A DNA stretch of 64,000 nt, from the UHGV virus genome UHGV-0010228; one strand, 5' to 3'. Under the pieces are notes generated by a model, which ran no database searches, had not been told where the DNA came from, and saw nothing but the letters and a program-made list of their open reading frames with translations. The stretch comes from a virus. Position numbers and translations under genes: made by a program. This document shows, one piece after another, positions 6,701-54,059 of this stretch; the first letter of the stretch is position 1; every line of letters begins with the position of its first letter.

Positions 6701-7300
6701 GATTTATATAATTTTATTTTAACAGATTTATTAGGTAAAATCCATTTAGATATTAAAGCGATTATAGTTTATGCTGAATCAAACTCTCCAATCCCGATCG
6801 ATGCTGATGTTGTAGGTTCTTATATATCTGAAAATGGAAAATTTGCTATGAAATTTCATCAGATAATATCATCAGACTTAGTTACGCATTTATATGGTAG
6901 TAATACGTGGGTGGAATATCCAGCTAACGGTGGGCATCACAATACAATGTATTATGATATATTCTATGAACCAGCAGGAGGTACAACTTATCCTTGTATT
7001 GTTGATAATATTGATAAAATCGAAAAGATGTTTGGTGGTATTGAACCTAAGTATTTAAATAGGTATTATTTTGATTATGATGCTTCAGTACCTAGCAGTG
7101 GTAAATTGAGTTCTATTGAAATGAATTCTCAATTTGAAGGTGAATTTTACTTACCACCGGTATTGGTATATGAGGGATATAATTATAATGATTATATAAT
7201 ACCAGCTAGTGATAATATAGAAAAGAATAGATATTTTGTTAGAATTTATAATAACTATGAACGTGTTGATAGTGAAATTATGACTATTACACTAAAATAA
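797..7300 (+). CDS. giant (2167 aa) BNR/Asp-box repeat protein; putative tail fiber/receptor-binding or glycan-degrading virion protein
   Basis: GAGGTG RBS. At least 10 S-x-D-x-G-x-(T/S)-W motifs (YSTDGKSWT, YSSDGISWS, YSTNGADWT, FSTDGKYWS, YSQDGKLWN, YSSDGKSWT, HSTDGKNWF, VSRDGINWS and others), typical of sialidase-like beta-propellers. N/S/T/Y-rich beta-type composition. Terminator hairpin directly after the stop. Confidence 0.85.
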   Translation: MSDALKNIAIQAEGLISKVTNSISKYKTGITNLGLSKDSSKDNKLSTVINDLESGTIAHALPSPNPVSNDMMRYSMEFYDQKNPNASIAIGTNNAFRLGIDFRVFKYNFLEKIESATWVLSENDAKNGYIYCISEGKLYKITIFKDRAPDVMELVMGKYTLKGRIIQWADDNHPSSKLYLGLVTDKNLLIVFDTTTGVIEELATQPSSEYISYLAQPYPIISTPLSDTAMLHVFVYKDASGILKLGRTTETFRNITTENYTASNIGLYSINNIIYFSILNNNTTELYTFNRTNIVQLGNYANSNKSMYWVNNIAYGINGTSLFSSTSNTFTNLGGLRVANDKFDLFTMVNDQIIIVDKSGIYLSGDTNHLSNNPTLSYYEILGSNIHINSNKNYIAINSAVKPSIIDNYFVSMMYLVRKDDPNQYILYYNPLDYENMGLDVNLYIRIKINGEYKLSTYKINNYDYESTYNEITEFNPLDSLNVIIPLVDVSPYLDSFSSTEKIYDMWCTYSNYNIDSLYSDINKMVINKNLPVKSKGATSFGLDVTSGNYYEWYKQIRGNNGSIGSATIDELNGEIIRILYDTSRSLYYAVGYKNDDDGHSNPLLIIYNESDDDNGWQEVKWDENDDEITFYSATNLEGELYDVSWQSNSLFCVGIYYPNSNSPTGSLYIRYEFDSSGNCSRKYYMTDLIDRNPENVDGKSIIKTGNIFLSSIDNIDKIYNKIPGKYIKSSVYANGMGLYDICANDSVYVASIATSAAANSYPESYYSYGVIPPISRILGMGLLYSSNGIDWYPSSIQAGLYRSIATDGKNFIAVPFYNKDTTKYKLKFSTDGKYWSDLSTTPDEKCTTIYYQNNRWVLRTDSGIWYKTGSITSGSWTKGTTRGGDLYFLNNRWYLMNESDGGSLCYSENLSSWTVIKSSNAYYTDMAYGNGIYVATTNLSGSSSPFLYSSDGISWSYSNLAQPSSYHSLGMSVGYGNNMFVAATDSSMYYSTNGADWTACDGNGIGPATQIIYCDGEWLATNFSNSGSYHSLRNSHDGKWWNANMYDEGDDIDQHGRWISAKICNGKFYGLYGSDMFYNCHPEYAVPPEGNYQYALKIHNNELVKCFKDFTITCNNKDYKYQIAMTKYNLYYEYNNGISYSSFANGLEFEQMDIDYEYKTLIAVGASYNYDSTEKHGGVVVCVGNQKNDNNPQGPWYETSLCNEDYYKKFDKPLLSVKCVNHLWVFGSNGKGLAYFEEIEELTDQKNLTLTQSNITEGVFKTIDYRDGLWVAGRNDSPGGVYYSTDGKSWTAPSVTSMCVNDITHSDKYFVAACEFGINPPSKAPIAYSQDGKLWNFINRNDMLTKLGDGSLNHIDCDKVFSYGDYVIASPEYTGMNYVSENGYQWYYTNVYIGFSDVISNGTVVIGIGGQNYHGIYFSSSDYIASKISSSNYSIGCFYSSKFSSINFSAGCYGGNLWLLGSGSNIYYSTEAQPDSESDWTTKTAHSALTNIYKLYWYNNIYLASDESKGIFYSVDGKTSWTWSNVTQGKYKFMYSLIGQYHYAYNDDVRNTGLYYSSDGKSWTKNPSIVDVYAISNGIANDVVGAFRYGTNAYSTLGIYHSTDGKNWFKYNNGKIKKDSNRILIKKLNDVIVNIGDGYIQYMTKSNTDWKDAIVNSGVGDLSNMIFTDIEAHNDVFVLVGKADKSKDSSGNQVILVSRDGINWSDDKIYFVANSSLAGVEYVDGKFIATSEGGSTYTNSYGIYYSINASEWKSALSTSYLDSNYRFSKPVKINDYWYTTKYNPDTYNQYSTNTVYYSKDLTKFNTTETNAAPISVYDDTENNQYIVGYSDGTIRYTEESVEEYIDSDYILISGYFEGGLSTDVYNKKYIPFTYIINGSNLELDDITLDDAKRIINYDFDNYSSGYNLEVISLSGSKTPYNYTGYDSLPMTKYSFMTLQYQYYELDNKIGWFPKILLYDNEFNCEEVDLYNFILTDLLGKIHLDIKAIIVYAESNSPIPIDADVVGSYISENGKFAMKFHQIISSDLVTHLYGSNTWVEYPANGGHHNTMYYDIFYEPAGGTTYPCIVDNIDKIEKMFGGIEPKYLNRYYFDYDASVPSSGKLSSIEMNSQFEGEFYLPPVLVYEGYNYNDYIIPASDNIEKNRYFVRIYNNYERVDSEIMTITLK

Positions 7301-8499: not shown

Positions 8500-9990
8500 A
8501 TGAGTACAAAAAATTATAATCCAATTACCGATTCATTGTTAACTGGAGCAAGAATCACAAAGATCCCTTTAGATCTTGATTGCTGGAATGATTTTCAAAC
8601 TGGTAAGGGAATCAGATTAACTTCAGTTGAAAGTTTTGATAAAAAGAATGAAAAGATTGAAAATGGTCTTCAGTCAGAATTCTTTGGTACAGATTTCGCT
8701 GACGATGAAGCATTTAAAGAAAGATTTAGATGCAAATGTGGTAAATATATAGGATCATCATATCGAGGAATGATATGTGAAAAATGTCAGTCTGAAGTTG
8801 AATATGTTGATATTGATCTTGAAAAGTTTGGATGGATCGTGATGGATCATTTTGTTGTAATAGCTCCTGTATATTATGCTAAGCTTATTGATGCATTAGG
8901 CAAAGTTGATGGTGAACCTGTAATCAATCATATTCTTACAGTAAAATATGATGATACTGATAATGTTGAATATACTGATAAAGAATTGAAGATGTTAAAA
9001 AATCACCCTTACATTAAAAAAGGAATGATTTGGTTTCATGATCATTATAAAGAAGTACTTGAGTATTATATGCGTCAGAAATCAGATAAAAAGACGGCTT
9101 TATTTGAAGAATTAATCAATGAAGTAGATTGCGTATTTACTCATTGTATTCCAGTATTTTCATCAGTATTAAGAACTGAAATGCCTAATGGAGAAAAAGG
9201 ATCTAAATCTTATAAATTAAAGATCAATACTATATATAAATCAATCATTAAACTTTCTAATGCAATAAATAAAACTAATGTTACAGATATGGACGATCAT
9301 GTAATTAATTCTGTAAATATAAAATTAGCTGCAGTGCAGAAAGAGATTGGCGTATTATTTGAAGAAATAGTAAAGACTATGACTTCAAAGACTGGAATAA
9401 TTAATGGTAAAGTATTGGGCGGACGATATAATTTCTCTAGTAGACAGATAATAGTTCCAGCATCAGGTAGAATAAGATCAGATGAAATAGAAATGGGATA
9501 TTTACCATTTCTGGAATTATATAGATACGAAATCATTAACTATTATGCAAAGATCAATAATTGTACTATACAAGAAGCTAGTTATGTATGGAAAAAAGCA
9601 ACCAATCATTTTGATCCAACTATATTTAAAATAATGGAATACATGGTTTCATCTTCAAAGTATAATAAATTTATGTGGGTTATATTAAACAGAAATCCTA
9701 GCATTAATTATGGATCATTTATTTCAGTACGAGTTGCAAGGGTTAAACCTGGATTAAATGATAAAACATTAGGAGTATCTCCACAGGTTATTATACCTAT
9801 GAACGCAGACTTTGATGGTGATGTGTTAAATGTTTATAGAATAGTCGGTGCAGATATGGCTAAAGATATAAGTAAGAATCTTAGGCCTAGTACAAACTTA
9901 TTTGTATCAAGAATGACAGGTAAAGCTAATACTGAAACTCTTCCTAATAAAGAAGAGATAACCTCATTCTGGGCATTTAATAATATCTAA
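8500..9990 (+). CDS. multisubunit RNA polymerase beta-prime subunit, N-terminal fragment (phage-encoded split RNAP)
   Basis: NADFDGD catalytic Mg-binding motif (IIPMNADFDGDVLNVYRI). N-terminal Cys cluster CKCG...CEKC (beta-prime zinc-binding element). RQIIVPASG resembles beta-prime region C. AGGAGG RBS. Confidence 0.85.
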   Translation: MSTKNYNPITDSLLTGARITKIPLDLDCWNDFQTGKGIRLTSVESFDKKNEKIENGLQSEFFGTDFADDEAFKERFRCKCGKYIGSSYRGMICEKCQSEVEYVDIDLEKFGWIVMDHFVVIAPVYYAKLIDALGKVDGEPVINHILTVKYDDTDNVEYTDKELKMLKNHPYIKKGMIWFHDHYKEVLEYYMRQKSDKKTALFEELINEVDCVFTHCIPVFSSVLRTEMPNGEKGSKSYKLKINTIYKSIIKLSNAINKTNVTDMDDHVINSVNIKLAAVQKEIGVLFEEIVKTMTSKTGIINGKVLGGRYNFSSRQIIVPASGRIRSDEIEMGYLPFLELYRYEIINYYAKINNCTIQEASYVWKKATNHFDPTIFKIMEYMVSSSKYNKFMWVILNRNPSINYGSFISVRVARVKPGLNDKTLGVSPQVIIPMNADFDGDVLNVYRIVGADMAKDISKNLRPSTNLFVSRMTGKANTETLPNKEEITSFWAFNNI

Positions 9991-15872: not shown

Positions 15873-17009
15873 TTATTTAACCTCTACATTGATTTCTGCG
15901 ATTCCTCTCCAGACTCTACGGTCAGTTTTATTAACATGATTTAGATGCCGATAATTATTTACTTTATTACACCAATCTAAATGATTAGTAACATTAATTT
16001 TACTTGGATCAATATAGCAACAAGCTGCGACTTTTTCAATATCAGACAACTTATTGAAGTTTCTTGAATCTTTCTTCAATTTCTTGTTAATCTTTCTAGT
16101 CATCTGATTTAGATTGTCATAAAAATCGTTACGTAATCGTCTAATATGCCAGTTCGGTATATTATATCTCTCTATAATTTCTGCAACTGATAAATCACGC
16201 CTGTAAATTCTAACAAGATCCTGAGTTGATAATAAATACTGTTCTATAATATCATTTATCGACTCGCATCTCTGGTGATACGATTTATTTTCGATATTAA
16301 CATTTTTATCATCATCAATATTGCTATTGTTATCATTTTTATCATCCTTTTCTACAACTTCATGATTAATATTTTTTACTTTAATATCTTCATCCTGAAT
16401 TGAATATGAATCGAGCAACTTTTCAGTTGCATTTTTCCTTGCATTATTAAATGCTTCTAATATTGCTGTACCAGTATTAGTATTAAACTGGCCATTTACA
16501 TCATTAGCGGGCTTATCCCCAATCTTAAGATTTGGATGGGTCTGACCAACTAATGTAGTCATGCAGTCCTTACTAATATTCTCACTATTGGCAATTTCAT
16601 ATGATGGTGTAAATAAATATTCCACCGATTTTAAATATGGTGGAACTTCATCCGTTAACCCCATATGAAATGCTAACGCTTTAGTCACAGCCTTCATTGT
16701 AATGGAGTCAAGCGCTCCATTTGTTTTTGTTATATATTTAGAGTTTATTGTAATAGGGCTCCAAGGCTCAATTACAGACTCTCTAAAAATATCCGTCTGC
16801 TCTCCTCTACTCATACCATTAATGCAGACCTTTATTCCAGGTCTCTTCCTTGTAGTTAATGGTACTACAGTTATTGAGTCAAATAACTGATTTGGTTCAG
16901 ATACCACTACGAGTGGTCTATTGTCAAGATACTCAAACTGAGAACCATGTAATCCAGGTTCATTTACATAAACGATTGTACCTTTTGCGAAGAAGTGATT
17001 TGTACTCAT
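15873..17009 (-). CDS. MazF/PemK-like N-terminal domain protein with long C-terminal extension (possible HTH)
   Basis: Start set at the internal ATG with AAGGAGG RBS (MSTNHFFAKGTIVYV...). N-terminus KGTIVYVNEPGLHGSQFEYLDNRPLVVVS...ITVVPLTTRKR follows the MazF/PemK consensus (GdIv.vdf.p..G.E....RP.vVlS....v.v.PlTs). C-terminal DLSVAEIIERYNIPNWHIRRL is HTH-like. Confidence 0.6.
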   Translation of the reverse strand: MSTNHFFAKGTIVYVNEPGLHGSQFEYLDNRPLVVVSEPNQLFDSITVVPLTTRKRPGIKVCINGMSRGEQTDIFRESVIEPWSPITINSKYITKTNGALDSITMKAVTKALAFHMGLTDEVPPYLKSVEYLFTPSYEIANSENISKDCMTTLVGQTHPNLKIGDKPANDVNGQFNTNTGTAILEAFNNARKNATEKLLDSYSIQDEDIKVKNINHEVVEKDDKNDNNSNIDDDKNVNIENKSYHQRCESINDIIEQYLLSTQDLVRIYRRDLSVAEIIERYNIPNWHIRRLRNDFYDNLNQMTRKINKKLKKDSRNFNKLSDIEKVAACCYIDPSKINVTNHLDWCNKVNNYRHLNHVNKTDRRVWRGIAEINVEVK

Positions 17010-17121
17010 AATAAATTCCTCCTTTTTATTATTAATCATATGAGTTGTAACTTCATTATAATAATATATACACTAAAAATCTTTTTTTTTTCGGTGTATG
17101 TTAGAACGGAGGTATTCGTAA

Positions 17122-18092: not shown

Positions 18093-20516
18093 TTATTTTT
18101 TAATAGTAGATAATTTATCTTTTATACCATTCTTCGTTAAATCTTTAAACATTGAAATGTCATTTTCAGTAAGATCAAGTTTCTTTAATATTTCCTTTAC
18201 AGAATCAGTTTCTTTAATCATATCCCAGCAATAATCTGATTTTTCTCCAGGAGATGATTCTATCATAGTAAATGATTCCATTGCAGAAATATATTCATCA
18301 AATAATTGATTATAATACTGAAGATTCTCATATTTATCGTATATAGTATAACCTCTAATTTGTAATGGCATTGCTATATTAGAATATACTTTATTTTCAA
18401 TATCAGAATCCTTTGCAGTTATGAATTCAATACGGAGACCTATTGCTTTCATATATGCATTTAAAGTATCGGCAGATGAATTTCTATATGCATCTTTAAG
18501 ATTTAACTTCTTTATCTCCAATGGATCACCTTTAGACGCAAGAATCTTTCCAAATTCTTTTCTTCCTATAGGCGAAGTTCTGCCGTACACACCATATGTA
18601 GCTATTATTCTACCCGATATGGCTGGTAATAAACCATGATTCTCAGTTAATCTAACAGGAGTTTTTGCATATGAACTCCTGTTAGTTTTCTTTGCAGAAT
18701 CTTTAGCTGGCTGATTAGTTCTGTTTAAGCTACCGGTTGATCTAGCAGAAAAGTTCTTACTAGAATTCTGTTTTAGAATCATCATATATTCATAACCAAC
18801 TACAGCTTTACGCATAACTTTACGATTTTTTGTGCCAAATAAATTTATATATAACTGTACTGGTTCTATCCATGGAAATTCATCATATAAGGCAGTTATA
18901 TCTTCATATCGTAATGGGGTATGAATCATTCTTACTAAATAAAATCCATCATCTTCAATACTCTTAATAAATTTCTCTTTAGCACCAGGATTTAACATTC
19001 TAAGTTTATAGCCACTAGTTGTTTCTACAGTTTGATCATAGCTATTATATAAATTATGATAGAATGTTGCATGTTCCATATTTACCATTGATAAGAATTT
19101 AAAGATTAAATCTTCTTTTTCTTTCATATCAGTCATTACTTGCAGACGATGTTGAATTCTTTCTGCTATGAAATTCAATTCAACTTCCATCAACTGTGCA
19201 GGATTTAGCCTACGTACACTTCCTGATTGTGATAATAAAATATCAACATTTATTCGTTCTCCAGTATCGGGGTCATAGTAAAATGGCATTCTTTCATCAT
19301 CGATGACTGTGGCTGTAATATTAGGATCTAATCCTATTGCGGGTTCATCCTCATTAAATGATGCGATAACACCTTTATTTCCATAACGTCCAGTGATTTT
19401 TGAACCATGCTCAAGAGGTACTGCAGATTTAACTTTAAATTTAACTATAATGTGTTTGAATGCTTTGTCTTTATTTCTCCACTTATACTCATCATTATTA
19501 TAATTTAAATATTTATCACGATATCTGAGTATATTCATAGTGTATTTAGATTTTGAGTTCTTAATCTTATTACACCATTTGAGTACTTCATATGCATACT
19601 TACAACCAGCTTCATAATACTTCTTAAGTTGTTTATGAAATAAATTATCTGGAAATTCTTCATCACCATTATAGAATACATCTATATCATATACTATAGA
19701 GTTTTTAGATACAAAATATTCCTTATCAGTATCATATGGATGCTTTAAATTATCTGACTGAAAATCATAAATGATATGAGAATTATTAATCCTTCTACTT
19801 GCACAGATTTCAGAATTTTTAACTTTCTCACCTATATCTGGAAATACTTTATAATCATCATTATCTCCATATAGATTTAATAAGATATCATTTGTGTTTA
19901 TAGAAACTTCTACATTATCAACTTCAGTTGATAATACTTTATTAGCCCACGATCTTCTTATAGCAATTGAATCTTCTAATGTATCTGTTGATATCGAATA
20001 TAATACTCTGGCATTCTTACCAAATCTATAATTCATATTATCATCATATGACGTTGATTTATATAAGATATCATCTCTTATAAAATCTCCAACTTTTAAT
20101 GAATCCATACATTCAGTATTATACTCATAACCAAATTTCTCAGTTAAATTTTCTGCTATAGGTCTTTCGATCATATCATACGTTTTAGTTTCTGTATTAT
20201 ATAATACCAGCATATATATTCCTTTATTTTCAAATTTAGGAATTATATCTTTAACTTCCCACTCGCCAGAAAGTTCTTTATATGATTTATTGTATTTACC
20301 TATAGCATTTTCAAACCCAGATGCTAATCTAGGCACATCAGGATTTAATAAAGTGAGGCACTGTTTAATATGCGCAGTAAACATGTAGGCACGGGAAGAG
20401 TCTATATCTCTCCCCCCTGCCAGTAATGAAGGACCGAACATTTTATACATATTATCCCCACTATATTTTTCATCCATTTCCTCAAGTTTCTGTTTTAAAT
20501 GTGTGTCTATTGGCAT
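18093..20516 (-). CDS. multisubunit RNA polymerase beta subunit, C-terminal fragment (phage-encoded split RNAP)
   Basis: TGRYGNKGVIASF matches the beta motif GRHGNKGVISK. The following DILLSQSGSVRRLNPAQLMEVELN parallels [26 protein letters not shown] RBS. Confidence 0.85.
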   Translation of the reverse strand: MPIDTHLKQKLEEMDEKYSGDNMYKMFGPSLLAGGRDIDSSRAYMFTAHIKQCLTLLNPDVPRLASGFENAIGKYNKSYKELSGEWEVKDIIPKFENKGIYMLVLYNTETKTYDMIERPIAENLTEKFGYEYNTECMDSLKVGDFIRDDILYKSTSYDDNMNYRFGKNARVLYSISTDTLEDSIAIRRSWANKVLSTEVDNVEVSINTNDILLNLYGDNDDYKVFPDIGEKVKNSEICASRRINNSHIIYDFQSDNLKHPYDTDKEYFVSKNSIVYDIDVFYNGDEEFPDNLFHKQLKKYYEAGCKYAYEVLKWCNKIKNSKSKYTMNILRYRDKYLNYNNDEYKWRNKDKAFKHIIVKFKVKSAVPLEHGSKITGRYGNKGVIASFNEDEPAIGLDPNITATVIDDERMPFYYDPDTGERINVDILLSQSGSVRRLNPAQLMEVELNFIAERIQHRLQVMTDMKEKEDLIFKFLSMVNMEHATFYHNLYNSYDQTVETTSGYKLRMLNPGAKEKFIKSIEDDGFYLVRMIHTPLRYEDITALYDEFPWIEPVQLYINLFGTKNRKVMRKAVVGYEYMMILKQNSSKNFSARSTGSLNRTNQPAKDSAKKTNRSSYAKTPVRLTENHGLLPAISGRIIATYGVYGRTSPIGRKEFGKILASKGDPLEIKKLNLKDAYRNSSADTLNAYMKAIGLRIEFITAKDSDIENKVYSNIAMPLQIRGYTIYDKYENLQYYNQLFDEYISAMESFTMIESSPGEKSDYCWDMIKETDSVKEILKKLDLTENDISMFKDLTKNGIKDKLSTIKK

Positions 20517-22740: not shown

Positions 22741-23050
22741 CTATATCAGAAGATCTATATCACCCTCAACAGCTCTTCTTTCTAATACATTTTTATATCT
22801 TTCAAGAATTTCTAACTGTTTCATCACGGCATCTTTGCTACAAGTAGGAAGTAAATCCTGATTACTATATGATATTTCATCCCATCTATATAGCATTTTC
22901 TTTATCTGAAAATATCTATACATCACTAAATAATATTCACCAATTAATGCTTCTTCTGGTGATGATGATACGATCATTTTCGCACCACGATTAAGCCATT
23001 CATCTGTAATACCTAATGCAGTATTAATCTTATCTATTACCATTTTAATA
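22741..23050 (-). CDS. hypothetical small protein (start chosen at the ATG overlapping the upstream stop, TAAAATG)
   Basis: The ORF track shows a 164-aa ORF whose 5' part overlaps the 23045..24031 gene in another frame. Truncated here to the non-overlapping part. Confidence 0.45.
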
Positions 23051-24343: not shown

Positions 24344-25345
24344 TTATTTTATTTTTCTAATCTCTTTAATTTTATCAGTATATGAAGATACTGATTTAAT
24401 TAAATTATTAAATCTTGATGGTAACTTAAGAATATCGACTCTTAAATCGTAAGTGTTATTCTTAAACATCGCATCTAACTTCTTAACATAGAGATCAAGC
24501 ATATGTGTTCTAACATGCTCAGGTGCTCGATCTAACTGCTCTAATGCAAAATCCGTTAACGATGTCCAGAAGAAATGTACATTATCATATCCTGGAGCAT
24601 CCTTATATTTATCTATTCTATTTACACCTTCAAGTAATATTGCTGTTGCTGTATCAGCAATATTATTCTTTCCAAATATAAATGAGAAGAATAAATACCA
24701 CTTAACTTTGCCATATGATAATCTTGCTTCATTCTGTGAAGCTTTTTCATATATATCTGCAAGTACAGCATTCAGGTAGAACTGTACTTTATTATGTGGA
24801 ATTAAATCAGTATCTGGAACCATCAACATTGCTGAATAACAAATCTCTTTAGGAAGATTTGTACTCTTGGATAATGTCTTTGCATCTCCCTTAATAATCT
24901 TCTTAGCAGTCTTCATACATTTCTCTATAAGAGGAATATACTTTTCAAGATTTTCCTTAATCTTTCTCGCCTCACTAGAAGACATTTCACCACTCTTTAA
25001 CTGATCTCTCACATCATCAGCAGTTTTATTATTTCTATCAGTTGCATGTTCTGCAATTGAATTTAAGAATACTGCCGATGATCTTGTATATTCATCATAA
25101 CCTTCATCTTCTATTATAGTTATGATCATCTTTAACACATCTGGCATTGTCAATGCATTATAAAGATCAGTAACCATATCAGCAGTGATTACAGGAATAT
25201 TTTTATCTTTATTGCGGCCATAATCAAATAACCATACATAAAGATCTTCATTATAGAAAAGATTCTTAATGAACTTTTCCTGCTTTCTCTTTGGATACTC
25301 TGCGAATTTATTAAGTTTCTTCAGAGTTTTTTCGTAGTCAAACAT
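24344..25345 (-). CDS. hypothetical protein
   Basis: Start moved to the internal ATG (MFDYEK...) preceded by AGGAGG at 8-nt spacing. Confidence 0.65.
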   Translation of the reverse strand: MFDYEKTLKKLNKFAEYPKRKQEKFIKNLFYNEDLYVWLFDYGRNKDKNIPVITADMVTDLYNALTMPDVLKMIITIIEDEGYDEYTRSSAVFLNSIAEHATDRNNKTADDVRDQLKSGEMSSSEARKIKENLEKYIPLIEKCMKTAKKIIKGDAKTLSKSTNLPKEICYSAMLMVPDTDLIPHNKVQFYLNAVLADIYEKASQNEARLSYGKVKWYLFFSFIFGKNNIADTATAILLEGVNRIDKYKDAPGYDNVHFFWTSLTDFALEQLDRAPEHVRTHMLDLYVKKLDAMFKNNTYDLRVDILKLPSRFNNLIKSVSSYTDKIKEIRKIK

Positions 25346-25418
25346 TTTATTGTCCTCCTTTAAATACAACTACAATTATGTTATTTACATTTTAATAATA
25401 TATCCATGTAGATCAAAT

Positions 25419-26048
25419 CTATAAAGTTCCAGACACTTCATGACTACCATATCCGGTTCCTATTCTATCAGAATATATATCAAAATGAAGTTTTAATACT
25501 TTCTTAATTGGTTTTGGTTCATCATCGGCATCTTTAAACATATTTAAACTGATTGTAAATGGAGTATCAATACTAAAATATGCTTTTGGATACTTTGCTT
25601 TTACAGCACCCTTAATTGCTGCTATAAACCAATTATATGATGAATTATAATCTTCATTATCATAGTACTCAAATATAGTACTTGTATATGATATTAATTG
25701 CTTATGTGGATTAACTGAATATTTTACATTACCAAATACTGGATTACACATTTCGCGTATTTTAGAATATTGCTTTGTATGAATAAACTCTAAGATAATA
25801 CTTTCAGTGAAATCTTTAGCATTGATAAATTCGCTGGCATTATCATTTGCAATAGTTGAAACTGATTTTGTATATTCAGCAGCAGCCTGTTTAAGAGCTT
25901 CTTGTGCTTTAGCTCTCCGAGCTTTTTCCTCTTCTTCTTTAGCTCGTTTAGCTTCAGCCTTAGCCCTTCTTTCAGCTCTAGCTTCTTTACTAAAATATGC
26001 TTTAATTCGTTCAACTACCCAATTGATAGCTCTAAATATAATATTCAT
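25419..26048 (-). CDS. hypothetical protein with highly charged E/R/K/A-rich N-terminal helix
   Basis: GGAGGTGG RBS. N-terminus ERRAKAEAKRAKEEEEKARRAKAQEALKQAAAE. Locally GC-richer codons. Confidence 0.65.
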   Translation of the reverse strand: MNIIFRAINWVVERIKAYFSKEARAERRAKAEAKRAKEEEEKARRAKAQEALKQAAAEYTKSVSTIANDNASEFINAKDFTESIILEFIHTKQYSKIREMCNPVFGNVKYSVNPHKQLISYTSTIFEYYDNEDYNSSYNWFIAAIKGAVKAKYPKAYFSIDTPFTISLNMFKDADDEPKPIKKVLKLHFDIYSDRIGTGYGSHEVSGTL

Positions 26049-26160
26049 TATTCCACCTCCTTTCTATTTAATAGAAAGATATAACTTATATTTTTTCATA
26101 TAGCATTACTACATTCTCGTGCTCACCTGAATAATATATCGTTATATAATAAAAAGAAAT

Positions 26161-26198
26161 AAAATACAAGATTAGGTTAAACCTAATCTTGTATTTTA
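26161..26198. terminator. intrinsic terminator
   Basis: aaaatacaagattaggtt-aa-acctaatcttgtatttt perfect 18-bp stem. Confidence 0.7.
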
Positions 26199-26214
26199 TT
26201 GTTGAATAAAGACA

Positions 26215-27429
26215 TTATTTAAAGAAGGTGTCTAAGACATTCTGTTTTGCATCTAACGTATCTTCAGCATCACTCATTAATCTAGAATTTGTTGAAGTTT
26301 TCTTTATGAAATCAAATTCGTTTACATCATTTGCTAAATTGATTTCTTTCTGTCGTTTAATTCTTTCTTCAGCTTCCTTAATAACTTCTTTGCATTTTAA
26401 TAATCTTGCATATGGAAGATTCATTCCTGAAAGAATTAAAATAAACTGTCCTAATGTAGTGTTACTTATAGAATAGTTTTCAAATATAGCTAATGGGGTA
26501 CCGATATAATCGGTAAGTTCAGAATAGTTACCAGATTTGGTAGCTTCAGCCATTTCTTCTGGACAATTGACAATAACACCCATCTGCTTAACAATACTAT
26601 CACGATTCATATCTGCCGCTGGTGATCTTCTTATCTTATCGATCATATACTTCTGTATTGAAGCTTTATCAACCTGCTCCTGAGTGACTTTATCTATCAT
26701 ATATACTGCACCGTAACCAGGTTCGCCAACAATAACTCTCATATCATTCTCATCTATCATGCCATTTTTAGATGCATTAAGATATTTACCAGCGATAGTA
26801 TTGATTGATGTTATAATATTATCAGCAACACCTGCATACGCAATATCATTTGAATCTTCTTCATAATACGATAAATCTGCAAGCATATATGATACACCTT
26901 TAATTTCACTTATTTCATTAATACAGTCTAATGTATTATACTGTGCCTGAATACTATCTGAAAGTTTAGGGAGTATCCCATAATACTTTATTATCTTAGA
27001 TGGATACATCTGTGTTAATAAAGATACGACAACTGGCGATATTCCAGATCCTGTACCTCCAGCAGTACTAGACACTACAAATACAATATCTGCACTTTCT
27101 ATAATCTTTGAGAATTCTGCATTAGTAAATAATTCTTTGCCATTATAATTGAAGATCTTCTTAGCATATTCTCTATTCTTACCTGCACCTCTTGCCTCTT
27201 TACCAGCAATAAATGAAGGTATATGTTCATTAACTACAGTATCATTTAAATCTTTTAATGATGAATTAATTGCAAATACACTATATCCTTCTCTATATGC
27301 TCTTGCAACTATTTGATTACCAGCATTTCCAATACCTATAACTGCAATTGACAATTTAACTTTATTTTCAAGATTTTCTCTTACATCAAGTATTGGACTG
27401 GCAGTTTTTATGTTATCTTCATATTCCAT
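26215..27429 (-). CDS. tubulin/FtsZ-superfamily GTPase (PhuZ/TubZ-like phage tubulin)
   Basis: T1-like loop IGIGNAGNQI near the N-terminus and tubulin signature VVSSTAGGTGSGISP (GGGTGSG with one substitution). 404 aa. GGAGG RBS. Confidence 0.8.
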   Translation of the reverse strand: MEYEDNIKTASPILDVRENLENKVKLSIAVIGIGNAGNQIVARAYREGYSVFAINSSLKDLNDTVVNEHIPSFIAGKEARGAGKNREYAKKIFNYNGKELFTNAEFSKIIESADIVFVVSSTAGGTGSGISPVVVSLLTQMYPSKIIKYYGILPKLSDSIQAQYNTLDCINEISEIKGVSYMLADLSYYEEDSNDIAYAGVADNIITSINTIAGKYLNASKNGMIDENDMRVIVGEPGYGAVYMIDKVTQEQVDKASIQKYMIDKIRRSPAADMNRDSIVKQMGVIVNCPEEMAEATKSGNYSELTDYIGTPLAIFENYSISNTTLGQFILILSGMNLPYARLLKCKEVIKEAEERIKRQKEINLANDVNEFDFIKKTSTNSRLMSDAEDTLDAKQNVLDTFFK

Positions 27430-27456
27430 TATTTAATACCTCCAAAATAATAAATA

Positions 27457-27496: not shown

Positions 27497-28237
27497 TTAT
27501 TTTACTTTATCATTACCTCTAGGACCATTAATTTCTCCAAGATCAGTAATGAGATTTGTAGAAATACCTTGCATTGCAAAATATACATCTAATGTATTAA
27601 GAGCGACCTTATTATATGGATCATTATCTAAATCCTGAAGGCTTACATAACCATCTTTAGATATACTCTTATACATTTCAGCTTTAGCCTTAGTATCATC
27701 TGCTCTAGGTCCCATAAATTCTTTTAATGCATTATCAGCACCTAATGCTATAAGTGAATAAGTTTCAGTATCAGTATTTCTAGCATTCTTATCATGTCCA
27801 GTTACCTGACCAGTTAATGAACTTCTAGATTCAATTTCAATAGAACCTGCAGATTTCTTTAATAATGTCTGAGGCATTCGTTTCTCATGAATATATCCAA
27901 CTGGAACTGGGGTTGGAGTAACTGTCACTACATTAGGATCTTCACTATTATATGGTAATGCAACTCGTTCATATAATGGAACTTTCATAAATTTAGCACA
28001 GTTTTCTAAATCCTTCATTGTAAATACTCTTTCAAATTCTATTATCTCTAAATAGAATTGGGCATTATCATCATTAAAGAATTCCCTTATATGTCTATCA
28101 AATTCTTGATCAGTCATTTTATCATATTTCTCATGATATATCTTCGAATTATCACCAGTTGGATCTAATAGGTCCATAACCGAGGTTAAATAATTCATAA
28201 ATTCTTTACGCTTTTGTGCGATTGACTTCACTACCAT
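27497..28237 (-). CDS. hypothetical protein
   Basis: Start moved to the ATG (MVVKSIAQ...) preceded by GGAGGTG. Confidence 0.65.
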   Translation of the reverse strand: MVVKSIAQKRKEFMNYLTSVMDLLDPTGDNSKIYHEKYDKMTDQEFDRHIREFFNDDNAQFYLEIIEFERVFTMKDLENCAKFMKVPLYERVALPYNSEDPNVVTVTPTPVPVGYIHEKRMPQTLLKKSAGSIEIESRSSLTGQVTGHDKNARNTDTETYSLIALGADNALKEFMGPRADDTKAKAEMYKSISKDGYVSLQDLDNDPYNKVALNTLDVYFAMQGISTNLITDLGEINGPRGNDKVK

Positions 28238-28697
28238 AATTTTTAATAACACCTCCTATATCAATATCACATGATATTGTGGCATATTTAGATATCTCAC
28301 AAAATAACTCATATGATTTTTCAAATACCGAATCATTTCTATACAAAAAACAAGCAATGATATCATAGAACCAATGATCGTTCTCATCATCAATTGTTTT
28401 AAGATATGGATATTTTAATATATTGTGCTCTGTATCATATTTTGGTACATTTCTTTTATATTCATCATGATATGTCAATTCTAAGCAATATTGATATATA
28501 GAATTAGTTGTTTCATATAATTGCTCGGCAATTATTCTAGCGTTTGGATAATTAGCAACTCTGGATAAAATAGTTTTTCTTATATAGAATACATTAGCAA
28601 GATATTTATCAATCCATGCATATTCCGATAAACCACTTCGTACAAGATTTGCTTCAAATTCTTGTATAAAAATTCCAATAAATGCCATATTTATCAC
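28206..28697 (-). CDS. hypothetical protein
   Basis: 163-aa ORF; 3' end overlaps the next gene start. Confidence 0.6.
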   Translation of the reverse strand: MINMAFIGIFIQEFEANLVRSGLSEYAWIDKYLANVFYIRKTILSRVANYPNARIIAEQLYETTNSIYQYCLELTYHDEYKRNVPKYDTEHNILKYPYLKTIDDENDHWFYDIIACFLYRNDSVFEKSYELFCEISKYATISCDIDIGGVIKNYGSEVNRTKA

Positions 28698-28738
28698 CTC
28701 AATAGATTGTTGTGATCTATTGAGGTGATGGTTTCTAC

Positions 28739-31289: not shown

Positions 31290-31386
31290 TGTCTTTATCC
31301 TCCTTTATCAAATAAATAATATATCTATTTATAGATTTTATTTATATTTTAACAGATTATTAATCGTAAGAAATCATGAAAGGACG

Positions 31387-42359: not shown

Positions 42360-44510
42360 TTGTCAATTTATTCTAAGATTTTAGACTTATTGAAATATTA
42401 TCGAGATCGGCATTTTCGATTAAATACTATTGCTAAAGATAATCATATTATTAATGAAAATAAAACGATCAGTGAAATAGGTGAGACCTTTAGTACAATA
42501 ACTAAATTAACTCCTTCTAGATCTCCAGAATCAGTCTCACCAGAATTTCCATTAGGACATCAAACTATACATGATGATGGTACAAGAGTTAATGGTATTG
42601 GATTAGGATACGAATTCTGTATAACAACAGCTGATACTCCTCCTAATATAAGTAAAATATCATCTGACTGTATCTTTAGATACAGTCCTAACAAATCATA
42701 TTCTAACCGTAATGGTCAAGGAGGTTATATAACTCTTAGAAATAATTCGATAAAGTATAATAGTTTAGAAATTATAAGTAATTCTAATGGTATTGATAAA
42801 AACGCATATTATTCTTTATCACAACCCGGGCCTGAAAAATACCAGTTTAATCGCATATCTCGCGATCCAATTACATCATATAAAGTGGTGAATACTGTAG
42901 CCTGTAAAAACTACATGTGTTGGTCTAATGGGGACAATGCTGATCTGACAAATATCAACATCATGAGCTTAGATGGTGCGATAATACTCAGTAATTACCG
43001 TCCAACAAGCTCGGCTAACACCTATAATGAAATATTAGATATGAGTCCAGGAAACGATAATGAAGTTTATGTATTATATAGAATCAATAAAAATACTACA
43101 GGATCAAACTCATATTCAATAATGAAGATCAACACTGCTCCAACAACACCAAACAATATAATTATTTCTGAAACTATAATTGATAAATGTAGTTATTGCA
43201 ATTCAGAAATAAAATATACTGAAGTTAAAAATATTAGTGGATCGTCTGATGGGTGCTATGCGGGTGTTTATATAAAGAATTCCGCTTCAGGTTTTATTTA
43301 TATAAAGAATGATTCACATAAAGTTTATAAAAATGAAAGAGCTCCAGTTTCAACTGGGAATTTTAAAGTTTCATATTCAGTTTCATATAAACGATTTAAT
43401 ATATATTCAAATACGCTATCATTATTAGGGTTTACGTATTTTAATTATGAAATAATTGACTATTATGGAAATACTGATACTTTTTATATTCTATATACAA
43501 ATAACGATAAATATTTTATTAGAAAATATAGAATAAATTCTCCAGTAAGTACAACAGCTGAGTTTGTATTGGAATGGACAACATGTATTGATTTGCCATT
43601 TTACAATATTCATACTGCAAATAAAACTAATAATTGTTTTGTATCATTCGATAATGATAATATGTATATTGCTTATGATGGTATAACAACATTTATTGAT
43701 ATAACATCTGGACGCATAGTGTCTAAATGTTCTGGTCATGTTATATGCATCAATAAATCTAAATATACTGATATATTAGACGAAAATAACAGTATTTCAA
43801 CCTATAGCTTAGGAACTGTAACTTCATTTATATATGAGATCAATAGAAGTTTAGGTGGTTATCTTATTAGTAATGATGAAAACATTTATGTTTCACAAAA
43901 TTTAACTAATTGGAGCTATATTATAGATACAAAGTATAAAGTAAGCTCTAGGCGATTAATATTTATGGATAATAACGGTATTATATATATCGCAAATAAT
44001 ATTGGTTCTACATCTAATAATATTATATATTTAGATTTATATTCAATTGATGGGATATTCTTAACGAGTTTTAAATTACCATCACAATCAACATTTTCAT
44101 CTGACAACACATTCTTCATATGCACTAACAAAGAAAAGAGTTCAAATATTGATGTATATTTTATAAATTACACATCTGCATTTCATATAACGAATGCAAA
44201 TGAATATAAAGTTAATCAAACTACTAGTATTGAAGTGCCTAAACTGATTAGAGGGACTAGCGTGATCTCATCTAATAGGATTCAATTATTAAATTTGGAT
44301 TTTATCCCTGAAAAAGTAATTATATCAATAAACGATTCTGTTACTATTGAAAGTACATATAATGGAACCATTAAATCATCAGATTCAGATTTTGCATCAC
44401 TAAATGCAGATGGAATTAATAATAATAATGTAGATATAATTGTCCCAGAAAAATATAATGGATTTAATTATACGTATGCTATATTTGGTAGATATTGTAA
44501 ATCCGTATAA
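42360..44510 (+). CDS. hypothetical N/S/T/Y-rich protein, probably virion structural (TTG start)
   Basis: GAGGGGAGG RBS 7 nt upstream of TTG. Beta-rich composition and Ig-like C-terminal segment. Confidence 0.6.
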   Translation: MSIYSKILDLLKYYRDRHFRLNTIAKDNHIINENKTISEIGETFSTITKLTPSRSPESVSPEFPLGHQTIHDDGTRVNGIGLGYEFCITTADTPPNISKISSDCIFRYSPNKSYSNRNGQGGYITLRNNSIKYNSLEIISNSNGIDKNAYYSLSQPGPEKYQFNRISRDPITSYKVVNTVACKNYMCWSNGDNADLTNINIMSLDGAIILSNYRPTSSANTYNEILDMSPGNDNEVYVLYRINKNTTGSNSYSIMKINTAPTTPNNIIISETIIDKCSYCNSEIKYTEVKNISGSSDGCYAGVYIKNSASGFIYIKNDSHKVYKNERAPVSTGNFKVSYSVSYKRFNIYSNTLSLLGFTYFNYEIIDYYGNTDTFYILYTNNDKYFIRKYRINSPVSTTAEFVLEWTTCIDLPFYNIHTANKTNNCFVSFDNDNMYIAYDGITTFIDITSGRIVSKCSGHVICINKSKYTDILDENNSISTYSLGTVTSFIYEINRSLGGYLISNDENIYVSQNLTNWSYIIDTKYKVSSRRLIFMDNNGIIYIANNIGSTSNNIIYLDLYSIDGIFLTSFKLPSQSTFSSDNTFFICTNKEKSSNIDVYFINYTSAFHITNANEYKVNQTTSIEVPKLIRGTSVISSNRIQLLNLDFIPEKVIISINDSVTIESTYNGTIKSSDSDFASLNADGINNNNVDIIVPEKYNGFNYTYAIFGRYCKSV

Positions 44511-45665: not shown

Positions 45666-46496
45666 TTATTCTGCCACTGGAATATTTTTTATCTGAGGGT
45701 TTGCCTCATAATTTGGAATATGAATATCATCTATAGTAAAATCATAAAAATCCTTTATATCAGGATTAATTAGTACTTGTGGCGCTGGATAAGTTTTTCT
45801 AGATATCATTTCTTTTACGATTGGTATGTGTCTATCATAAATATGTGCATCCGCAATACAATGAATTAGTGTACCAGCTTCATAACCAGTAACCTGTGCT
45901 AATAATTTTAATAATAACGAATACTGAAATACATTAAATGCATTTGCAACTAATACATCTTGTGATCTTTGATTTAATATAGCATTTAATTTATTTCCAG
46001 TAACATTAAATGTCATACTATAAGCGCATGGTGCTAAATTCATTTCATGTAGATCTTCAAAATTATATATATTAGTTATCATACGTCTACTCTGTGGAGT
46101 ATTCTTTAATTGCCATATGATATTATCAACCTGATCCATTTCTCCCTGTGGGAATAAATATTTCTTACCTAATTGATACCCATAGGCTTTACCTATAGTA
46201 CCATCTTCGCCTTCCCACTGATCCCATATATGATTTCCTAATTCCGAAACCTTATTGGATTTCTTCTGCCATATCCATAATAATTCTTGTGTTGCAGTTT
46301 TCCATGCGGTTGGTCTTAGTGTGCATAATGGCATTTCTTTACCAACATCATAGACATTTACTGCACCAAATATTTTTATAGTATGGGCTGGTGTTCCATC
46401 TTCCCATTTAGCTCTAACAACTGACCCTTCAGTTGAATATCCGTAATCAATAATATGATTACATAACGTAATTAAGCTATCATCATATTTACTCAT
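45666..46496 (-). CDS. thymidylate synthase (ThyA) family enzyme (thymidylate synthase or dUMP/dCMP hydroxymethylase)
   Basis: Start at the internal ATG with AGGAGG. Catalytic-Cys region NLAPCAYSMTFNV resembles LPPCHxxxQFYV. IFGAVNVYD resembles the ThyA N-terminal block. Confidence 0.75.
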   Translation of the reverse strand: MSKYDDSLITLCNHIIDYGYSTEGSVVRAKWEDGTPAHTIKIFGAVNVYDVGKEMPLCTLRPTAWKTATQELLWIWQKKSNKVSELGNHIWDQWEGEDGTIGKAYGYQLGKKYLFPQGEMDQVDNIIWQLKNTPQSRRMITNIYNFEDLHEMNLAPCAYSMTFNVTGNKLNAILNQRSQDVLVANAFNVFQYSLLLKLLAQVTGYEAGTLIHCIADAHIYDRHIPIVKEMISRKTYPAPQVLINPDIKDFYDFTIDDIHIPNYEANPQIKNIPVAE

Positions 46497-46601
46497 TTTA
46501 TTAACCTCCTTAAAATAAGTATCCATATAACTTTATAGATAAGTTAGATAAGGAATACTAAAAAACAAAATCGTAATTTTATAGAAAGGGTGGGTAAAGA
46601 C

Positions 46602-47810
46602 ATGGATACTATCCCTGAAAATTTAAAAAAAGAACTATTAGCACTAGATGCTAAAACTATAACAGTTTCTCAGATATCATCTTTATTTGGTTATACAATG
46701 GATAAAGAATCTGGAGATCCTTTTAAAGTTAAACCTCCGAAATTTGATACTACATGGAAAATGCATTTAAATGCCGGAGAATATATCAACAAAGAAGCTG
46801 TAGATACTCATGTTGGAATATTTTTATTTAATAAACTTCTTATTGAGGGAAATGTTGAAGATGCAATTCCAAATGGTTACTATAATGAAGTAATGACCGC
46901 AAAGAAAATGAAAAAGTTACTTTCAATGATTGCAAATGCCTTATTAAATAATATTGTAACAATAAAGCCTCAAGTATATCATTTTCTAAGAAATTATGAA
47001 TTTTGGTCTCTTAAATTAGTATCTATATTCTCTGCATCATATACGCCTAAGTTATTAGATATGAACACTAAAATTGAGGCTGAAAAGAAGAGAGTTCTGA
47101 ATGATCTCGATTCAATGACTATGGTTGATATGGTAAATGCTGAAGATAAGTTAGTTGATATGGCTAACCAGGTAGTTGGAAACGATCCAGGTAAGGCAAT
47201 ATTTAATTCTGGAGCAAGAGGTTCATTTGAAAACGACTATAAGAACATGATGTTATCTGTAGGACCTACAATGAATCCAACTACAGGGGAATACGATTTT
47301 ATCAAATCTTCTTATTTAGGTGGTATTAGCAAAGAGGATTTAGCTGCCGCAGGAAATATAATTATTAATGCAGAATATCCTAAAGCAATTGGTACTGCTA
47401 AAGGTGGATACTTGGTAAAGCAGTTCTATGCAGTATTTCAGAATGTAGTCTTCGGAGAACCAGGCTCTGATTGTAAAACTAAAGAAGGACTTATAGTAAA
47501 GATTGATAATGATAATGTAAATGAGTATATCGATCAATATGCATTTGGTAAAAGTGGGCCAGTTTTAATTACTGAAGAAAATGCAAAGAATTGGATTGGT
47601 AGAACTATAAAAATTAGATCACCGATGTTTTGTACTGCAGAGCATATTTGTAATAAGTGTGCTGGAGAGAGATTTTATAAATTAGGAATTAGAAATGCAG
47701 GATTAACTGCAATAAATATTGGTTCTAAAATCTTAAATGCCGGAATGAAAAACCGTCACTCTCTTAAAATTAAACTCGATACGGTTGATATTAATAAGGT
47801 GCTAAAATAG
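46602..47810 (+). CDS. multisubunit RNA polymerase beta-prime subunit, C-terminal (trigger-loop region) fragment, copy 1
   Basis: IRSPMFCTAEHICNKCAGERF...GLTAINIGSKILNAGMKNRH parallels the beta-prime VRSVVSC...GVCAHCYGRDL...[23 protein letters not shown] region. Confidence 0.8.
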   Translation: MDTIPENLKKELLALDAKTITVSQISSLFGYTMDKESGDPFKVKPPKFDTTWKMHLNAGEYINKEAVDTHVGIFLFNKLLIEGNVEDAIPNGYYNEVMTAKKMKKLLSMIANALLNNIVTIKPQVYHFLRNYEFWSLKLVSIFSASYTPKLLDMNTKIEAEKKRVLNDLDSMTMVDMVNAEDKLVDMANQVVGNDPGKAIFNSGARGSFENDYKNMMLSVGPTMNPTTGEYDFIKSSYLGGISKEDLAAAGNIIINAEYPKAIGTAKGGYLVKQFYAVFQNVVFGEPGSDCKTKEGLIVKIDNDNVNEYIDQYAFGKSGPVLITEENAKNWIGRTIKIRSPMFCTAEHICNKCAGERFYKLGIRNAGLTAINIGSKILNAGMKNRHSLKIKLDTVDINKVLK

Positions 47811-50065: not shown

Positions 50066-50337
50066 TTTTCTTTTTCCTCCCAGCAAATAATAACATCATC
50101 ACTTCTATCATCAGTATTATTAGTATACAATACAACATTATATTTACATTTATCTTTTAATGATAAATCCTCTATGGGATATACATTAACACAATCATAA
50201 AAAGCACCATTACCGGGAATATTTGGCTGATTATTATAATATTCCATTTCAACAGTATAAGTTAATTGTGAATACGATAAACTCGTAAACAGTGTAAATA
50301 ATAATAAAGTTTTCATATTATTGTCCTCAATTGTCAT
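50062..50337 (-). CDS. small secreted protein (signal peptide)
   Basis: MKTLLLFTLFTSLSYSQ N-terminus; GAGGA RBS; stop overlaps the next start (ATGA). Confidence 0.55.
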   Translation of the reverse strand: MTIEDNNMKTLLLFTLFTSLSYSQLTYTVEMEYYNNQPNIPGNGAFYDCVNVYPIEDLSLKDKCKYNVVLYTNNTDDRSDDVIICWEEKEK

Positions 50338-53986: not shown

Positions 53987-54024
53987 TTTTGTGTGTACCT
54001 CCTTAAAATAATTATATAATTTTT

Positions 54025-54059
54025 GAGAGAGCCATAGCATAATACACTATGGCTCTCTC
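54025..54059 (-). terminator. intrinsic terminator
   Basis: gagagagccatag-(9 nt)-ctatggctctctc, T-run on the minus strand. Confidence 0.7.

Follow-up and report, generated by a model that had tools for sequence, protein, structure and literature searches.

The 64,000-nucleotide stretch of UHGV virus genome UHGV-0010228 analysed here (the window), part of a genome of at least 200 kb, carries on its minus strand at 26215-27429 a gene for a tubulin that is a relative of the TubZ of Clostridium botulinum phage c-st and not a PhuZ, the spindle tubulin of chimalliviruses. The gene is conserved in the transcription and replication module of a large, uncultured lineage of jumbo phages with AR9-like split multisubunit RNA polymerases (RNAPs), and it is strictly linked to a previously undescribed family of all-alpha proteins. 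The reading that best accommodates these observations, and to which we give slightly better than an even chance, is that tubulin and all-alpha partner form a two-gene cytomotive module of TubZ type that would act early in lytic infection. The first-pass annotation of this DNA had proposed either PhuZ or TubZ; the TubZ-type ancestry stood, the PhuZ role found no support, a classical tubRZ partition cassette was not seen either (no TubR, TubY or iteron was detected), and the result is a third situation that lies outside both alternatives. Window and comparisons are described below together with 46 related loci of ~20 kb each.

Translation of the open reading frame (ORF) gives 404 amino acids (aa) with a T1 loop GIGNAGNQ and a tubulin signature AGGTGSG, just as the first pass had read it, and the Pfam Tubulin/FtsZ GTPase domain PF00091 matches at E 3e-18 (67 bits, cutoff 33). 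Tubulin_2 (PF13809) also scored above its cutoff (31.9 bits, cutoff 27), and TubZ_C_3 matched below threshold. In an alignment of 70 homologues, G34 and G37 of the T1 loop and G124 and G125 of the T4 signature are invariant, G32, N35, A36 and Q39 are at least 90% conserved, and D226, E227, N228 and D229 of the T7 loop are invariant in 70/70 sequences. In the tubulin/FtsZ family, the acidic residues of T7 complete the GTPase site of the adjacent subunit in the filament. The invariance of the T1 and T4 glycines and of the T7 motif therefore indicates that residues for nucleotide binding and polymerisation-activated hydrolysis are under selection. Members of the superfamily share a fold made of an N-terminal Rossmann-like GTPase domain, a core helix H7 and a C-terminal activation domain, and the AlphaFold2 model of the window tubulin (predicted local distance difference test score, pLDDT, 88; predicted template modelling score, pTM, 0.83) has the two-domain tubulin fold; after it come a long helix, a linker modelled with low confidence (aa ~360-391) and, at the C terminus, a short helix (aa 392-403). 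This model superposes on TubZ structures over 296-332 residues at 2.3-2.8 A. The sequence and fold hallmarks of the superfamily, namely T1 and T4 ([SAG]GGTG[SA]G), an acidic T7 loop and the two-domain fold, are thus found in the protein, and we predict, with somewhat more confidence than doubt, that it is a GTP-dependent, filament-forming tubulin of c-st TubZ type. It is not an orthologue of FtsZ, which agrees with the first-pass annotation, as the NCBIfam ftsZ equivalog TIGR00065 gave 50.4 bits vs a cutoff of 295.2.

A sequence search of the PDB returned c-st TubZ as the best match (4XCQ/3V3T, E 2e-18), with CetZ and FtsZ next and PhuZ absent among the best 60 matches, and a Foldseek search with the model also placed 3V3T first (template modelling score 0.85 on target), with PhuZ absent among the best 50. 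A hidden Markov model (HMM) built from 121 members of the tubulin family gave its highest score to a Bacillus pumilus plasmid protein (132 bits), then to the phage G homologue (112) and c-st TubZ (100), followed by E. coli FtsZ (34 bits), five PhuZs (13-22) and the TubZ of pBtoxis (8). The c-st-group HMM scored 181 bits vs 42 for the PhuZ HMM, and in hhalign the c-st group was matched over both domains (301 columns, E 6e-40), whereas the match to PhuZ was confined to the GTPase domain (184 columns, E 6e-11). PhuZ is among the remotest superfamily members from the window tubulin both in HMM score and in structure, and the match to phrog_4733, named 'tubulin PhuZ' (E 5e-11), covers aa 27-231 only. 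The superfamily phylogeny that the first pass had called for was run as a neighbour-joining tree; the window family and PhuZ were each monophyletic with 100% bootstrap, the PhuZ clade excluding the window family, but deep placement was weak (family + c-st 42%, family + PhuZ 13%). Since the deep nodes were poorly supported, placement was rested on the HMM, hhalign and structural comparisons, and these independent measures agree that the window tubulin is a c-st-type TubZ relative and not PhuZ.

Identity to c-st TubZ (type III partition TubRZY, PDB 3V3T/4XCQ), which is nearest in both sequence and structure, is only ~25%. The two have the same T4 signature where PhuZ reference sequences instead have GGxSGS. 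Among deposited phages, only phage G and c-st/D-1873 matched the tubulin by tblastn (~26% identity), and among plasmids only TubZ-like genes of Bacillus and Clostridium did so, at 30% identity or less. The tubulin homologue of Bacillus phage G (CL58_gp632) aligns to the window tubulin at full length (93% coverage), and this protein and the TubZ-like proteins of B. pumilus / B. velezensis plasmids account for the top family-HMM scores given above (112 and 132 bits). That phage G is a jumbo phage of a Firmicute is a shared point, but it is without a split RNAP block at its tubulin gene, and both its locus and the Bacillus plasmid TubZ-like loci lack the all-alpha partner, unlike the window lineage. 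The TubZ/RepX proteins of Bacillus plasmids (pBtoxis, pXO1; PDB 3M8K, 4EI7) have near-nil similarity to the family, are longer (484 aa) and operate with TubR and tubC, both of which are absent at the window locus.

The C-terminal tail gives the same picture. The window tubulin terminates in ...DAKQNVLDTFFK, distant family members in ...ELDLDDIFNKYK and ...EIDLDDVFNLYVKK, and c-st TubZ in ...EIDINDFFSKYM, the tip of which is nearly superimposable in pattern on the tips of those distant members. F403 is invariant in the 70 homologues, and 117 of the 121 family members have a hydrophobic tip of the form [ILVMA]xx[FLYWM][FLYWM] within their last 14 aa, with acidic residues before it. The tips of c-st TubZ and of distant family members also resemble the C-terminal peptide of E. 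coli FtsZ (...YLDIPAFLRK). PhuZ tails have acidic-G-hydrophobic ends (...SSGLVFD, ...DDGFVV, ...DDNGMFL, ...DDDGMM), whereas the window family ends in ...L[DN]xFF[KN]. The acidic PhuZ 'knuckle' that the first pass had suggested looking for, a tail inserting into the next subunit and a concept reportedly owed to Kraemer and colleagues in 2012, is not present, and the tip is of c-st type instead. In c-st TubZ, the tail tip touches the upper filament subunit and binds the TubR-centromere complex (TubRC) and TubY (PMC5322520). As the tip is conserved in the window family, a conserved ligand is therefore implied.

The window has a guanine-plus-cytosine (GC) content of ~29% and standard stop-codon usage, and the six phiKZ/AR9-type split multisubunit RNAP pieces that it encodes confirm that this is a split-RNAP jumbo phage, as had been proposed. 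It also encodes DNA polymerase, primase, DnaB, Dda, SbcC, UvsX, NAD ligase, thymidylate synthase and an amidase endolysin, and no tRNAs were found within the 64 kb. The nearest cultured relatives by RNAP beta are jumbo phages of Firmicutes, namely Internexus, the Bacillus phages PBS1 and AR9, BpSp, Staphylococcus S6/PALS_2 and Listeria LPJP1 (~30% identity, E ~1e-75), vs 22-24% identity with chimalliviruses (E 1e-8 to 1e-12). The gene upstream of the tubulin is a 251-aa virion RNAP (vRNAP) piece matching phrog_3233 (E 2.7e-39) and AR9 gp077 (36% identity, E 4.6e-17), and it holds the same position in related loci L006, L008, L024-L033, L063 and L064; the absence of a small TubR-like gene in front of the tubulin, which the first pass had remarked on, was thereby confirmed. 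AR9 has the same backbone of gp077 virion-RNAP subunit, UvsX and non-virion RNAP beta, but no tubulin or partner between gp077 and UvsX. Orthology of the partner (341/333 aa) and the adjoining 328-aa gene with AR9 gp079 and gp080 was considered and rejected, as no BLAST or HMM similarity was found. AR9 and PBS1 have uracil DNA, whereas the window phage encodes a thymidylate synthase, suggesting that the lineage uses thymine, or a derivative, in its DNA despite its AR9-like transcription machinery.

The tubulin family comprises at least 376 homologous clusters, many of them on contigs of 200-520 kb, and their labels in the source are only the generic 'hypothetical protein' or 'cell division GTPase FtsZ'. 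IMG/VR contributed 43 further tubulin loci at 27-55% identity. Gene order is conserved as RNAP piece, tubulin, 341-aa gene, 328-aa gene, UvsX and RNAP beta, and it persists down to 31-33% tubulin identity and across GC contents of 28-45%. The exact window tubulin is found on human-gut (Hadza) and other metagenome contigs, some in the 0.2-1 Mb class, and megablast of the region against deposited phages gave no match and no near-identical DNA. In 185,579 species-representative genomes, the family is on three contigs of metagenome-assembled genomes (MAGs) only, one of them 258 kb, and in no isolate. We tried to read the host from these assemblies, but the three MAG bins conflict (Akkermansia, Bacilli, Lachnospiraceae) and were uninformative. 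The lineage that conserves the tubulin in its transcription and replication module is large and uncultured and consists of jumbo phages from gut and rumen.

The second component of the module is the all-alpha protein encoded downstream. Using a profile iterated from 12 homologues, we found exactly one member of this family in 41 of the 43 IMG/VR loci and in L006-L008, while the two IMG/VR loci without it are contigs that terminate at the tubulin gene, leaving 44/44 informative loci with a partner. In each of those relatives it directly follows the tubulin on the same strand, usually with a gap of 35-160 nt, and the homologues are ~330-410 aa long. For the window protein, a length of 333 aa from the ATG is more likely than 341 aa from the upstream TTG, because the ATG agrees with metagenome gene calls and lies 3' of the gene's own early promoter. 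The AlphaFold2 model of the partner is confident and all-alpha, and the partner-family HMM had no match to c-st TubY at E<=1, nor to any ORF of the c-st locus. The tubulin has an isoelectric point (pI) of ~5 and its tail one of 4.5, and the partner family has a median pI of 8.9, so that the charges are complementary. In the window only, a 209-aa gene sits between the tubulin terminator and the partner, while the two genes adjoin in relatives; with this gene, the terminator and their own promoters separating them, tubulin and partner are therefore linked but not strictly co-transcribed in the window. The 209-aa coiled-coil product was considered as a TubY analogue and rejected, since it has no similarity and is missing from relatives. 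We conclude that the partner is a lineage-specific protein family, strictly linked to the tubulin and previously undescribed.

The expected timing of expression comes from promoter motifs. The core of the AR9 early (virion-RNAP) promoter, ATATATTAT, occurs 27 times in the window, and 14 of the 27 fall in the 6.1% that is intergenic, in the right orientation and less than 100 nt from a start codon. Each of these 14 matches, which amount to a strong enrichment next to gene starts, has a G at +15, as does each of five annotated AR9 early promoters, and the full window motif is ATATATTAT-T-N-A-N-a-T-G with an invariant G at +15 (14-15 intergenic sites). This shared architecture therefore makes the phage AR9-like in its transcription system. 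A weight-matrix scan found no early-promoter site above 2 bits between 27430 and 29450, and the nearest early promoter 5' of the tubulin lies before the DNA polymerase gene; a predicted terminator hairpin begins 15 nt past the tubulin stop codon. Given this distant promoter and the hairpin past its stop codon, the tubulin is predicted to close an early operon that runs from DNA polymerase through genes of 222 aa and 163 aa and the vRNAP piece to the tubulin. The short gap that separates the genes of 222 aa and 163 aa contains a perfect 15-bp inverted repeat (28693-28729), which could act as an internal attenuator or in RNA processing. The early-promoter motif stands immediately 5' of the tubulin in three relatives, L028, L032 and L064.

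The accessories that accompany TubZ elsewhere were also searched for. Four TubR-position proteins had no homologue in the window or the 46 related loci, and the same holds for TubY. The centromere search of window and flanks, which the first-pass annotation had recommended as a check, returned only chance-level two-copy repeats and low-score tandem rows, with no iterons or arrays. At the c-st TubZ locus, tubR lies upstream, tubY (MerR-type helix-turn-helix plus coiled coil) downstream and centromere iterons (tubC/tubS) are present, none of which is found at the window locus; the window tubulin is coupled to an unrelated all-alpha partner. Overall, the family does not cluster with cellular FtsZ, a C-terminal tail is present and no TubR or centromere was found. 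In c-st, phage G and the B. pumilus plasmid, a small gene (81-98 aa) abuts the tubulin start. The 98-aa genes of phage G and of the 124-kb B. pumilus plasmid (L016 3689-3985 and L021 2208-2504) are mutually homologous (E 1.5e-7) and weakly TubR-like, which implies unrecognised tubRZ-type cassettes in both.

In the two-gene cytomotive module that we favour, the tubulin would be made early, in keeping with its predicted place at the end of an early operon that begins with the DNA polymerase gene. It would polymerise head to tail, with GTP hydrolysis on each subunit activated by the T7 loop of its neighbour, to give dynamic filaments that may be treadmilling or unstable, and its flexible acidic tail with a hydrophobic tip could both stabilise the longitudinal contact and dock a partner, as in c-st TubZ. 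The mildly basic all-alpha protein would be the most likely tail partner, because TubR, TubY and centromere repeats are absent, and it may serve as a cargo adaptor or a filament regulator. The filaments could then position or move replicating DNA, a replication/transcription factory or capsids during lytic infection, a role that would resemble that of PhuZ in function, would have a separate evolutionary origin and would need no chimallin shell.

Several points weigh against this proposal. Polymerisation, early timing, contact between tail and partner, and cargo are all inferred, and homology favours a role in partition, since c-st TubZ, the nearest homologue to have been characterised, is a partition motor. 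The scan covered only 64 kb of a genome whose size is at least 200 kb, and chimallin or TubR and a centromere may lie elsewhere. The deep branches of the neighbour-joining tree have low bootstrap, 42% for the grouping with c-st. The partner fold yielded no functional clue, no sequence or structural relatives of the partner were found, and in the window a terminator and a non-conserved gene divide tubulin and partner, which have separate promoters. It is possible, and we offer this only tentatively, that the locus represents a third independent phage tubulin system, in which a TubZ-derived motor lost TubR and centromere, gained a new all-alpha adaptor and became an early cytoskeleton that organises a chimallin-independent replication/transcription compartment, or traffics capsids, across a widespread AR9-related lineage.

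Homology is also the strength of the foremost alternative, that the tubulin is the partition motor of a plasmid-like prophage or pseudolysogen and delivers genome copies into daughter cells or spores in a carrier state, which we think unlikely; a partner that replaces TubR as DNA or centromere adaptor, with a centromere that is unrecognised or outside the window, would be similarly unlikely. The relatives that have been characterised and stand nearest to it are TubZs from the type III partition systems of Clostridium and Bacillus plasmid-prophages, the tail-tip motif is shared with c-st, where it binds the TubR-centromere complex (PMC5322520), the partner is mildly basic, and jumbo-phage tubulins have been tied to pseudolysogeny (PMC7824862). 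However, TubR, TubY and iterons are missing from the window and the 46 loci, while a gene in the TubR position abuts the tubulin in all three of c-st, phage G and the B. pumilus plasmid. The c-st tubZ gene lies in the maintenance region of a plasmid-prophage, whereas the window gene lies within the RNAP and replication module of an AR9-like jumbo phage, behind early promoters and not next to a replicon or lysogeny module, and integrase and repressor were not seen among the 41 annotated window genes. The family was also never found in an isolate genome (only the three MAG contigs in the 185,579 genomes), and its plasmid matches are distant, at 30% identity or less.

The first-pass annotation leaned towards PhuZ and chimalliviruses, and this leaning was unsupported. 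The window tubulin does have points in common with the PhuZ proteins of chimalliviruses that we compared (phiKZ gp39, 201phi2-1 gp59, Goslar; PDB 3ZBQ, 3RB8, 9PM9): each is phage-encoded, belongs to a jumbo phage with split multisubunit RNAPs and has a C-terminal tail, which in PhuZ serves filament contacts, and a role in intracellular organisation is likely analogous. Every chimallivirus has split RNAPs of both the virion and the non-virion kind, with which tubulin is correlated across jumbo phages (PMC7824862); phrog_4733 was matched, and the scan covered 64 kb of the genome. A true PhuZ analogue in a nucleus-forming phage, with filaments that centre and rotate the phage nucleus and a shell protein too divergent or outside the window, is nevertheless improbable, since PhuZ is remote in HMM score and structure, its fully supported clade excludes the family and its tail motif is different. 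Searches with phiKZ chimallin and then with a seven-sequence chimallin HMM without filters found nothing in the six-frame window or the 46 related loci. In reference chimalliviruses (phiKZ, RAY, Goslar, RP12, DT01), chimallin is immediately 5' of the gp55-type RNAP piece, and the sole positional candidate in the window is a 716-aa ORF (42360-44510, plus strand) upstream of the gp55-type piece on the same strand, with three smaller genes between. We rejected it as a divergent chimallin, as it had no Pfam, PHROG, phage-tblastn or chimallin-HMM match, has four close homologues and is not lineage-wide; it is an ORFan with one match among 1.84 billion representative proteins. The gp55-like RNAP piece had no relatives in the IMG/VR scan. 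Finally, the nearest cultured relatives are AR9/PBS1-like phages (Takahashivirus and relatives), which lack chimallin, and Prichard et al. describe two of the nearest relatives, PBS1 and PALS_2, as phages with these RNAPs but without chimallin (PMC10299810).

Takeover of host division, in which an FtsZ-C-terminal-peptide-like tail (phi-D-phi-x-x-phi-F-x-K) binds host FtsA, SepF, ZapA or EzrA, or the tubulin co-assembles with FtsZ, so that division is blocked or phage filaments are anchored to the membrane, draws on the resemblance of the c-st and distant-member tips to YLDIPAFLRK and on FtsZ ranking just below the c-st group among sequence relatives (34 bits), but we find both the takeover and these outcomes hard to credit, as the likeness is confined to a short motif, the core is clearly TubZ-like and not FtsZ-like, and the strictly linked, phage-encoded partner suggests a phage-encoded tail ligand.

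Table 1. Positions of the tubulin gene, its parts and other features in the window (regions without nucleotide positions are given in aa).
Feature	Position	Strand	Description
Tubulin gene	26215..27429	-	404-aa c-st-TubZ-like tubulin/FtsZ-superfamily GTPase, ATG start
Tubulin regions			globular core aa ~26-360; variable charged linker aa ~360-391; conserved C-terminal tip aa 392-404
T1 nucleotide-binding loop	27313..27336	-	GIGNAGNQ, aa 32-39; from translation
T4 tubulin signature	27046..27066	-	AGGTGSG, aa 122-128; from translation
T7 loop	26740..26760	-	MIDENDM, aa 224-230; from the 70-homologue alignment
Tail tip	26218..26256	-	aa 392-404, ...AKQNVLDTFFK; short amphipathic helix after variable linker, c-st-like pattern
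Ribosome-binding site	27439..27443	-	GGAGG, 9 nt 5' of tubulin ATG; read from sequence
Predicted intrinsic terminator	26158..26200	-	perfect 21-bp-stem hairpin, 1-nt loop, 100% complementary, then T-run
Partner gene	24344..25345	-	333-aa all-alpha protein; ORF extends to TTG at 25369 (341 aa)
Partner early promoter	25385..25408	-	core ATATATTAT, G at +15; weight matrix 23.9 bits
209-aa gene	25419-26048	-	non-conserved; N-terminal amphipathic helix, highly charged coiled coil; own early promoter 26121-26144
Nearest early promoter 5' of tubulin	31306..31329	-	before DNA polymerase gene; weight matrix 21.4 bits
vRNAP piece, 251 aa	27497..28252	-	orthologue of AR9 gp077 C-terminal RNAP domain; upstream neighbour of tubulin
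RNAP pieces	8500-9990, 18093-20516, 27497-28252, 46590-47810, 48050-50086, 52280-54040		
Thymidylate synthase	45666-46526	-	phrog_160, E 6e-82
Early-promoter sites	8399, 17061, 22676, 25395, 26131, 31316, 33196, 35054, 37760, 38322, 42295, 55313, 57934, 58599	-	
Early-promoter site	8439	+	

Other features of the window and its relatives fall outside the tubulin locus. A giant ORF of 2167 aa (797-7300, plus strand) has zero PHROG matches, and by BLAST only a single related locus, L025, matched it, weakly at 26%. The N-terminal ~120 aa of a 388-aa protein (15873-17039, minus strand) match the PemK/MazF toxin domain (Pfam E 3.8e-7, above cutoff), an endoribonuclease-toxin-like domain that is joined to a long C-terminal region without assignment, and an early promoter lies before the gene. 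Between the 328-aa gene and UvsX is a 100-aa gene (22741-23043, minus strand) that matches Pfam PF21825 at 25.6 bits (cutoff 24.8), a family named crAss001_48-related in the Pfam copy used and 'Sequestin' in metagenome annotation. Core genes are broken up by mobile elements in relatives (L006 968-3946 and 16165-18498; L067 1234-4329): an intein lies in the gyrase A/topoisomerase IV subunit, the UvsX homologue of L006 has a Hom_end/LAGLIDADG insertion, and AR9 gp077 has a group I intron with an HNH endonuclease.

The reviews and surveys covered by our search deal with phage tubulins solely as PhuZ alongside chimallin or as TubZ for partition or pseudolysogeny (PMC12625630, PMC13282480, PMC7824862, PMC7162821), and that search found no description of a c-st-type TubZ conserved in AR9-like metagenomic jumbo phages, nor of the partner family. 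Here a TubZ-type motor is fixed in the transcription and replication module of an uncultured lineage that is common in human and animal guts, and its tail-tip motif connects c-st TubZ, the window family and the FtsZ C-terminal peptide. The early-promoter sites provide a ready early-gene map for an uncultured phage, and the linked partner offers a testable handle on the recruitment of cargo by tubulin tails. If the module does organise infection, cytoskeletal organisation in jumbo phages would not be confined to chimalliviruses and would have at least two origins, in different branches of the tubulin superfamily.

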